Below the pieces are notes generated by a model. It was not told where the DNA came from, searched no databases, and saw nothing but the letters and a program-made list of their open reading frames with translations. A stretch of DNA of 64,000 bases from Candidatus Dormiibacterota bacterium. Lineage in GTDB: Bacteria; Chloroflexota; Dormibacteria; Aeolococcales; Bog-877. A program made the translations under genes and the position numbers. The stretch covers positions 149,812-213,811 of the forward strand of contig JBAWFE010000027.1 of NCBI GenBank assembly GCA_049591595.1. The letters run 5' to 3'. Below are positions 31,214-32,836 of the stretch, one piece after another; within the stretch, counting starts at the first letter, position 1, and each line of letters begins with the position of its first letter.

Positions 31214-32836
31214 GTGGTAATGGCGAAGGCCAAGGTCAAGGCGGTGGAGCAGAAGGCTGATGCAACCCAGCGCACCGGCACCGTGCTTCAGGTGATCGGT
31301 GCCGTGGTGGACGTGGCCTTCGACGCAGGCCAGCTACCCCACATCAATGACGCCGTGGAGGTCCGTCGCGACGGTCCCCGACTCGTCCTGGAAGTACAGC
31401 AGCACCTGGGCAACGACGTCGCCCGCTGCATCGCCATGGCCTCCACCGATGGACTGCGCCGGGGCGATCCGGTGGTGGCCACCGGCGGCCCCATCGAGGT
31501 CCCGGTGGGCAAGCAGGTCCTGGGGAGGATGTTCAACGTGATCGGTGAGGCGATCGATGGCGGTCCCCAGATCACCGGCGGGGACCGGCTGCCCATCCAC
31601 CGCGATCCACCATCGGTGGCGGACCAGGAGACCTCGACCGAGATCCTGGAGACCGGGCTCAAGGTGATCGACCTGATCTGCACCTTCGCCAAGGGCTCCA
31701 AGATCGGACTCTTCGGGGGCGCCGGGGTGGGCAAGACGGTCATCGTGATGGAGCTCATCCGCAACATCGCCAAGGAACACGCGGGCTACTCGGTTTTCGC
31801 CGGTGTGGGCGAACGCACCCGGGAGGGGAACACGCTCTTCCGCGAGATGCACGAGTCTGGGGTCATCGACCAGACCGCGCTGGTCTTCGGTCAGATGAAT
31901 GAGCCGCCCGGGGCCAGGGCTCGGATCGCCCTGACCGGACTGACCATGGCGGAGCAGTTCCGCGACGGCGAGGGCGCCGACGTGCTGCTCTTCATCGACA
32001 ACGTCTTCCGCTACATGCTGGCGGGGAGCGAGGTCTCGGCCCTGTTGGGTCGGATGCCCTCAGCAGTCGGGTACCAGCCAACTTTGGCGACCGAGATGGG
32101 TGACCTCCAGGAACGGATCACCTCGACCCACCGGGGCTCGATCACCTCGGTGCAAGCGGTGTTCGTGCCCGCCGACGACTTCACCGACCCCGCCATCCAG
32201 ACCACCTTCGCCCACTTGGGAGCGACCGTCTCGCTGAGCCGCTCGATCGCTGAGCTGGGGCTCTTTCCGGCGGTGGACCCGCTCGACTCCTTCAGCCGCA
32301 TCCTGGATCCCAACGTGGTGGGCGCGGAGCACCACCAAGTAGCTCTGGGGGTCCAGCGAGTACTCCAGCGTTACAAGGACCTCGAGGACATCATCGCCAT
32401 CTTGGGCATGGAAGAGCTCTCCGACGAGGACCGACAGACCGTGGACCGGGCCCGTCGGGTCCGCCAATTCCTGGCCCAGCCGATGTTCGTTGCCGAGCAG
32501 TTCACGGGCCTGGCCGGAAAGTACGTGCCCATCAAAGAGACGGTGCGGGGATTCAAGGAGATCCTTTCCGGGACCCTCGATCACCTGCCCGAGCAGGCCT
32601 TTCGGATGGTTGGCACCATCGACGAGGCGATCGAGAACGGGCAGCGGTTGAATCGGGGCTCCGAGCCCGGAGCTAAGCCGGAGAGGCCCACGTACGGCGC
32701 GAAGGAGAGCGATCAAACTGATTCGGAGTCAGAGCCTGCGCCACCGGCTGTAGCCAAGGCCGAACAGCCGAAGGCGCCGGCCCGCGGCAAGGCGCCGGCC
32801 AAGCCCCGAGCCAAGCCCAAGGCGAAGGCCAGCTGA
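31214..32836 (+). CDS. atpD: F-type ATP synthase subunit beta with a ~60-aa Lys/Ala/Pro-rich C-terminal extension
   Basis: [18 protein letters not shown] (P-loop) and the DELSDED region [22 protein letters not shown]. The canonical C-terminus ...[17 protein letters not shown] is followed by [61 protein letters not shown]. Confidence 0.97.

Follow-up and report, generated by a model that had tools for sequence, protein, structure and literature searches.

Does the β subunit of a bacterial ATP synthase carry a genuine appendage of 61 residues at its C-terminus, and if so, what could such an appendage do? The question is raised by a 64,000-nucleotide stretch of contig JBAWFE010000027.1 (called the window below, at its full length), which derives from an uncultured soil bacterium, Candidatus Dormibacterota, and holds the ATP synthase genes in the order atpA-atpG-atpD-atpC. 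In its atpD, which encodes the F1 β subunit, 61 codons (residues 480–540, nucleotides 32651–32833) lie beyond the end of every solved bacterial β. As a description, it is close to certain from the comparisons given below that this tail represents a genuine, lineage-specific and translated-looking extension of β. Its function is a more tentative matter: our preferred reading, to which we assign a probability of roughly 0.35–0.4, is that the tail is an electrostatic leash, present once on each of the three β subunits, which helps to keep F1 at the membrane or to recruit it there. The features needed for the argument are these:

31214 (GTG) or 31220 (ATG) to 32836, plus strand: the whole atpD open reading frame.
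31214..32650, plus strand: canonical part of atpD, F1 β residues 1–479, delimited by three Pfam domains and the alignment with 2qe7_D.
32651..32770, plus strand: initial 40 codons of the tail, net acidic, Pro/Ala/Ser-rich and predicted to be disordered.
32771..32833, plus strand: final 21 codons of the tail, basic, net charge +8, no acidic residues.
32834..32840, plus strand: atpD–atpC junction, TGA-c-TTG, with TGA at 32834–32836, TTG at 32838 and 1 nt between them.
32838..33260, plus strand: atpC, encoding the ε subunit of 140 aa (PF02823 and PF00401), with a TTG start.

The product of atpD is a complete F1 β subunit that contains the Pfam domains PF02874, PF00006 and PF22919, the Walker A motif GGAGVGKT and, in its translation, a DELSEED-type loop that reads EELSDED. 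The start codon is ambiguous between GTG 31214, from which the frame spans 540 codons, and ATG 31220, from which it encodes the 538 aa of NCBI-style calls. The closest solved relative, the Caldalkalibacillus β subunit (2qe7_D), matches at 6e-205 over query residues 21–479 and ends exactly at query residue 479 (...ENGQRL); a preliminary description of this DNA had placed the tail at nucleotides 32651–32833, in full agreement with this boundary. The same description took the tail as a whole to be basic and rich in Lys, Ala and Pro. The overall composition is A13 P11 K9 R4 E6 D2, and the characterization is apt for the last 21 residues, where a cluster of basic residues gives a net charge of +8, but not for the first 40, which have a net charge of about −3. 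Hydrophobic and aromatic residues are both absent from the basic block, whose Lys codons are all AAG. Since the first ~7–10 tail residues (NRGSEP..) also occur in short-tailed relatives, which finish LNRGAEPEAAA, the lineage-specific portion would amount to about 50 aa.

By our own estimate, a 61-codon open frame has a chance of ~20% at the G+C content of the window. The conservation among relatives, the in-frame changes of length, the G+C content at third codon positions (GC3) and the excess of lysine are beyond chance. The preliminary description had allowed for a sequencing error that introduces read-through, and for relatives in which a stop codon at the canonical position is followed by unconstrained noncoding sequence. 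The first is countered by the recovery of the identical protein, and of a variant with one tail residue changed, from separate assemblies, and by the dozens of diverged relatives that are tailed; tails of at least 40 residues past the canonical end are present in 64 of the 120 listed relatives, the longest having 123. As to the second, some relatives do stop early, but atpC starts at that stop and there is no noncoding remnant. In 13 of 13 operons (the window, the loci of 11 syntenic relatives and a distant Dormibacterota locus, L001), tailed or tail-less, the stop codon of atpD lies immediately next to the start codon of atpC or overlaps it (0–1 nt or an ATGA overlap), and the junction is the same whether β ends after ~10 extra residues (LNRGAEPEAAA, LNLGREEQVA) or after 53–108. 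Because the atpD stop adjoins the atpC start in tail-less relatives, no spacer lay between the two genes for a lost stop codon to open. The GC3 of the window tail is 0.77 versus 0.87 for the core, and across loci the tails range from 0.77 to 0.89 and the cores from 0.85 to 0.90, a codon-position pattern typical of coding sequence. An error, or a stop lost in one metagenome-assembled genome (MAG) such that noncoding spacer DNA is read as protein, has nothing in its favor beyond the general error rate of MAGs, and we reject it as vanishingly improbable. Assignment of the tail DNA to an N-terminal extension of ε was likewise rejected, as no start codon precedes 32838 in the frame of atpC. The tail arose and grew through in-frame expansion within atpD, with the stop staying beside the atpC start.

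The distribution of the tail bears on how it has evolved. All sequences considered are metagenome-derived. In 48 of the 120 listed relatives the extension is shorter than 15 residues, and all but one of the listed relatives with a source name are Dormibacterota. Basic-ended tails occur in two groups, namely the clade of the window, with core identity of at least 80% (clade A), and a second group (clade B). Among 29 representatives of the two, 21 distinct tail lengths (53–117 aa) are found, all in frame; lengths within clade A run from 61 to ~118 aa. Tails of clade A finish in KPK(S/A)KAS or a sequence close to it and those of clade B in TRKS, and the retention of the terminus through so many in-frame insertions and deletions means that the reading frame has been maintained. 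The acidic spacer comprises 40 residues in the window and up to about 60 in relatives, and the basic end about 20–50. On a neighbor-joining tree of the cores, drawn without support values, clade A forms one group and clade B (P0047, P0064 and P0066, with repeat-built tails) is nested among short-tailed relatives, which suggests a second gain of the acid-then-lysine design with unrelated sequence. In deeper Dormibacterota clades the β tails are either neutral, with a mixture of K/E/A/P, or purely acidic, and relatives with cores about 85% identical exist without a tail. As a background sample, the β genes of 80 species were taken from a genome scan (79 species from other phyla and the distant Dormibacterota locus L001): in 77 the protein terminates no more than 11 residues away from the canonical end, and none of the three with >20 extra residues is basic-ended. 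Outside Dormibacterota, acidic Gly/Ala/Pro-rich β tails were seen in two lineages (L022, L002), one of 50 aa in an Anaerovoracaceae MAG and one of 33 aa in a Chloroflexia MAG.

Some of the relatives' tails are near-perfect tandem repeats, such as an in-frame 45-nt unit present 3.2 times (L090, 8462–8607); the repeats of P0044 and P0066 include a 17-aa unit present six times and an 8-aa unit (KKATSAGE) present eight times. The 45-nt in-frame repeat and the perfect peptide repeats indicate that the β tails of relatives grow by in-frame slippage. One sub-clade (P0024–P0032, P0029) has a hydrophobic Ala/Val/Ile segment, AAVIAAVAG, within the acidic block that is absent from the window tail and may be a helix or docking element.

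These data invite the explanation that the tail is a nearly neutral, low-complexity expansion generated by replication slippage and devoid of a specific partner, its frame being kept since a premature stop or frameshift would uncouple atpC translation, and selection only removing sticky residues. The very variable lengths, the tandem repeats in relatives, the alternation of presence and absence among close relatives and the tails of any charge in deeper clades would all follow, as would a ratio of nonsynonymous to synonymous differences (pN/pS, Nei-Gojobori) of about 0.5–0.8 in the tail compared with about 0.04–0.09 in the core. The strictly conserved stop-start junction, with a Shine-Dalgarno-like AAGG in the final codons of atpD, points in the same direction. 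We nevertheless regard this explanation as possible rather than probable, given the rarity of long β tails in the background sample, the recurrence of the same design in clade B, and the amino acid usage and charge order of the tails. Likely genes in the window (~19,000 residues) use 1.9% Lys and 8.0% Arg, and the lysine-rich end of the tail therefore stands out; 9 Lys and 4 Arg are found in the window tail, versus a genomic ratio of about 1:4 (binomial p = 1e-4), and the Lys:Arg ratio is about 2:1 in clade A and B tails versus about 1:3 in their cores. A neutral expansion of G+C-rich DNA should favor Arg, Ala, Gly and Pro, not Lys. A general habit of Lys/Ala/Pro tails was also considered and rejected for the window, where AtpD alone has such a stretch in the ~19,000 residues.

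The order of the charges is equally persistent. In clade A, the first half of the tail has a net charge of 0 to −10 and the second half of +6 to +14, and of 42 unique long tails, 41 have their basic residues significantly C-terminal of the acidic ones (p < 0.03 for each on shuffling), an order that persists in pairs of tails with as little as ~23% identity. The KPK terminus is kept despite synonymous codon differences. We regard the lysine excess and the charge order as the best evidence for selection at the protein level, over and above the mere maintenance of an open frame. The architecture, consisting of an acidic Pro/Ala start, a Lys-rich end and KPK(S/A)KAS, is conserved while the sequence drifts.

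At the level of the nucleic acid, the terminal Lys-Ala codons (AAGGCN) place an AAGG some 10 nt ahead of the start codon of atpC, where it probably serves as the Shine-Dalgarno sequence of atpC. A 6-bp hairpin, GGCCAG/cugac/UUGGCC (32827–32843), extends across the stop codon of atpD and occludes the TTG start of atpC in the minimum free energy fold, and would fit translational coupling; the start codon of atpC is paired in many related loci, to an extent not distinguishable from G+C-driven folding. No Rfam match was found in the window, no promoter-like or terminator-like site was found, and folding at 32640–32860 is not unusual (z = −1.26). An RNA-level role for the tail DNA was rejected for want of support from these searches.

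In order to describe the tail as a protein, we turned to structure prediction and homology searches. An AlphaFold2 model (monomer, shallow 56-sequence alignment) has a mean predicted local distance difference test score (pLDDT) of 65; the final helix is predicted to end at residue 482, and residues 483–540 are coil of pLDDT 28–34 with no secondary structure. The tail is hence predicted to be intrinsically disordered, and a monomer model from a shallow alignment leaves room for folding upon binding. Searched alone, the tail gave no match at E ≤ 10 among PDB sequences, which include that of Polytomella (6rd4_X), and no match in Pfam or among 1.84 billion representative proteins; the window tail contains no tandem repeat and no PAKK motif. 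The likeness to the PAKK-repeat tails of HupB and histone H1 drawn in the preliminary description is accordingly one of composition, and only over the last ~21 residues: because the tail matches no family or solved structure, has neither PAKK nor repeats and begins with an acidic part, homology is not indicated. That description had also envisaged the tail emerging near the γ/ε stalk region, which calls for correction, since the tail does not begin right at the stalk. The functions that it put forward, a latch or a tether to a polyanion, are weighed below.

A search for a docking surface compared clades A and B with three tail-less loci. The DELSEED-type loop is identical in tailed and tail-less relatives, and nothing convincing was found to covary with the tail in α, γ, ε, a, b, c, δ or the product of a 121-aa open reading frame of the operon (described below). 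Clade-A-specific substitutions are mostly not common to clade B and therefore track phylogeny rather than the tail. The absence of a co-evolving docking site weakly favors a partner that is non-specific or is not a protein.

Dormibacterota are known for persistence in energy-poor soils, a habit that would suit an autoinhibitory latch in which the basic end binds the EELSDED loop or the γ/ε stalk beneath the β C-terminal domain. The length of the tail is sufficient for such reach, and the basic end and terminal motif are conserved. There is precedent in the mycobacterial α extension, likewise predicted to be disordered, which yet hooks γ and blocks hydrolysis (10.1101/2020.08.06.225375), and basic peptides, like ε, are known to bind the DELSEED loop (PMC3268026). 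On the other hand, those ligands of DELSEED that are known are amphiphilic helices, and a conserved motif that forms a strand is part of the mycobacterial hook; the present tail is Pro-rich, nearly without hydrophobic residues, predicted to be coil and, in clade A alone, anywhere between 61 and about 118 aa long. The DELSEED region is unchanged with or without the tail, the clade-A-specific substitutions in α, γ and ε are mostly absent from clade B, and a full-length ε with a basic C-terminal helix is already in place. On balance, we consider a latch unlikely.

The reading that we prefer is an electrostatic leash. In published structures (PMC8855526), the C-terminal domain of β is the membrane-proximal domain of F1. 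The tails would leave its outer face, one per β and three per enzyme. The F1 surface is strongly acidic (net charge −19 for the β core and −18 for α), and repulsion by it would keep the acidic spacer extended, so that the lysine block could then bind an anionic surface a few nanometers away. From polymer scaling (radius of gyration about 2.54 × N^0.522 Å), we estimate that the basic block begins about 4–5 nm from its anchor, and the gap between F1 and the membrane in bacterial cryo-EM structures is roughly similar. The likeliest partner would be the anionic phospholipid headgroups beneath F1, which eight or more Lys/Arg residues at high local concentration should bind. The result would be three additional, salt-sensitive guy-ropes that steady F1 or recruit it to the membrane. 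The partner of the basic end is the weakest step of this proposal, and the acidic loops of the enzyme itself, polyphosphate or nucleic acid might take the place of lipid.

Several observations weigh against the leash. The tail is devoid of hydrophobic or aromatic anchor residues, and polybasic tails are usually aided in binding anionic lipids by hydrophobic or lipid anchors. The tail is dispensable, because relatives with cores about 85% identical lack it, and the neutral or purely acidic tails of deeper clades could not bind an anionic membrane. A Lys-rich extension is also present at the N-terminus of β, which is membrane-distal. Constraint on the tail is weak or marginal, with pN/pS significantly below 1 in one of four pairs, and the conserved terminus may owe its retention in part to the atpC Shine-Dalgarno sequence rather than to the protein. 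Finally, the data are all metagenome assemblies, and the phylogeny is a simple neighbor-joining tree that has no support values.

The N-terminal extension just mentioned consists of ~19 Lys/Ala-rich residues (31220–31276), is predicted to be disordered, and is kept as MAKAK[VT]KA in clades A and B, less strictly in relatives whose tails are short; it may simply reflect A-rich codons favoring initiation. Lying at the far end of F1, it would suit a diffuse polyanion better than a membrane, and thus lends some weight to the explanation that the tail binds a polyanion (nucleic acid or polyphosphate) or self-associates via the acidic blocks of its neighbors to cluster ATP synthases. In mycobacteria, the tails of Ku and HBHA are rich in Lys, Ala and Pro and bind to DNA, heparin and lipid inclusions (PMC3553676, PMC10665949, PMC6176652), and three tails per complex together with block-wise segregation of charge should favor multivalent electrostatic association. 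Against such binding, the basic stretch is only about 21 residues long and preceded by an acidic half, PAKK-type repeats and sequence similarity to the polyanion-binding tails are absent, no functional rationale links F1 to nucleic acid, and the operon context contains no pointer to polyphosphate. This explanation strikes us as improbable, more so than the latch.

A more far-reaching possibility, which we put forward with considerable reserve, is that the β tail is a regulatory device new to bacterial F1Fo, either as a latch against hydrolysis in dormancy or as a trivalent acid/base 'sticker'. In the latter version, it may tether F1 to the membrane or cluster ATP synthases electrostatically, sensing ionic strength or energy state.

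Two further genes of the operon were delimited ahead of atpD in the window:

28793–30328: atpA, encoding an α subunit of 511 aa, of ordinary length and without extension.
30337–31209: atpG, encoding a γ subunit of 290 aa, of ordinary length.

The ε subunit encoded by atpC is full-length, with its N-terminal sandwich and C-terminal helical domain, and terminates in RDRRRRRD. The order of genes in the 11 syntenic loci is an atpI-like gene, a 121-aa open reading frame, atpB, atpE, atpF, atpH, atpA, atpG, atpD and atpC. The second of these was located as follows:

L081, 2080–2445, with its window equivalent at about 26216–26665: the 121-aa open reading frame.

Its hydrophobic product, encoded in every syntenic locus between the atpI-like gene (PF09527) and atpB, is conserved and has no Pfam match; it may be an uncharacterized accessory membrane protein of the ATP synthase. 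A 413-aa open reading frame on the minus strand (32673–33914), antisense to the tail, to atpC and to a downstream gene for a WecG-type glycosyltransferase, was discounted as an artefact of high G+C content. Further downstream lie a Tad-pilus-like cluster and SecA with a zinc-finger C-terminus (window 42365–48834 and 54475–57186). The first protein of the Tad-like cluster has a response-regulator receiver domain, a ParA/CpaE-like ATPase domain and a low-complexity C-terminus, ...PELKAEAKAPTARRFGLRR.

How, then, does the tail compare with known extensions of F1? The preliminary description held that an extension on β is an undescribed arrangement. For bacteria this agrees with the literature searched, in which we found no paper on a bacterial β extension or on the Dormibacterota ATP synthase; it does not extend to mitochondria, where C-terminal extensions of β have been described in Polytomella (PMC8855526) and in Acanthamoeba (118 aa) and Dictyostelium (58 aa) (PMC13632647). 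The only solved structures with a long C-terminal extension of β are mitochondrial, e.g., Polytomella 6rd4. These algal and amoebal extensions leave F1 outside the head, beside α, and are helices that wrap the neighboring α, in Acanthamoeba also contacting the peripheral stalk (PMC8855526, PMC13632647). The tail of the window resembles them in being attached to the same terminus of the same subunit and in being of similar length; unlike them, it is bacterial, charge-segregated and predicted to be coil, and it has no sequence match to 6rd4.

The mycobacterial α hook is similar in other respects, being a lineage-specific C-terminal extension of a bacterial F1 subunit that is charged, predicted to be disordered when free and found in persistent hosts (10.1101/2020.08.06.225375). 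In contrast to the tail, it resides on α, spans about 35 residues and contains a conserved motif by which it joins γ as a β-strand. The tail is borne by β, covers 61–118 aa in its clade, and is Pro-rich and of low complexity without a strand or helix motif; neither an α-borne extension nor the combination of a strand motif and a co-evolved γ surface is found here. The ε C-terminal domain and the basic peptides that bind DELSEED offer a third comparison, as a basic segment near EELSDED could act alike (PMC3268026), yet those binders are amphiphilic α-helices, and the tail has neither hydrophobic residues nor helix propensity. With the disordered polycationic tails of HupB, Ku, HBHA and histone H1, the last ~21 residues share a Lys/Ala/Pro composition (PMC3553676, PMC10665949). 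The tail differs from that group in lacking PAKK/KAAK repeats and detectable similarity, in the acidic block that precedes its basic end, and in its attachment to β of a membrane-bound F1 rather than to a DNA-binding fold.

Lineage-specific extensions of F1 have proved to be regulators or stabilizers, as with the mitochondrial β wraps, and in one case, the mycobacterial α hook, to be relevant to drugs. A conserved, disordered and charge-segregated tail on a bacterial catalytic subunit would be an added type of F1 extension, and its role would be informative about the ways in which slow-living, uncultured bacteria of soil control the attachment of ATP synthase or the wastage of ATP. Should the tail act as a latch, it would represent a further independent solution beside the ε C-terminal domain, ζ/IF1 and the mycobacterial α hook. 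The tail also offers a clean example of selection, at the level of the protein, on composition and charge order, in which lysine is favored against the G+C bias as the sequence drifts. Judged by these comparisons, the AtpD of the window is a member of its family with an appendage of a new kind, one that falls outside the classes of α hook, β wrap and PAKK-repeat tail and shares with the other lineage-specific extensions of F1 their general principle.

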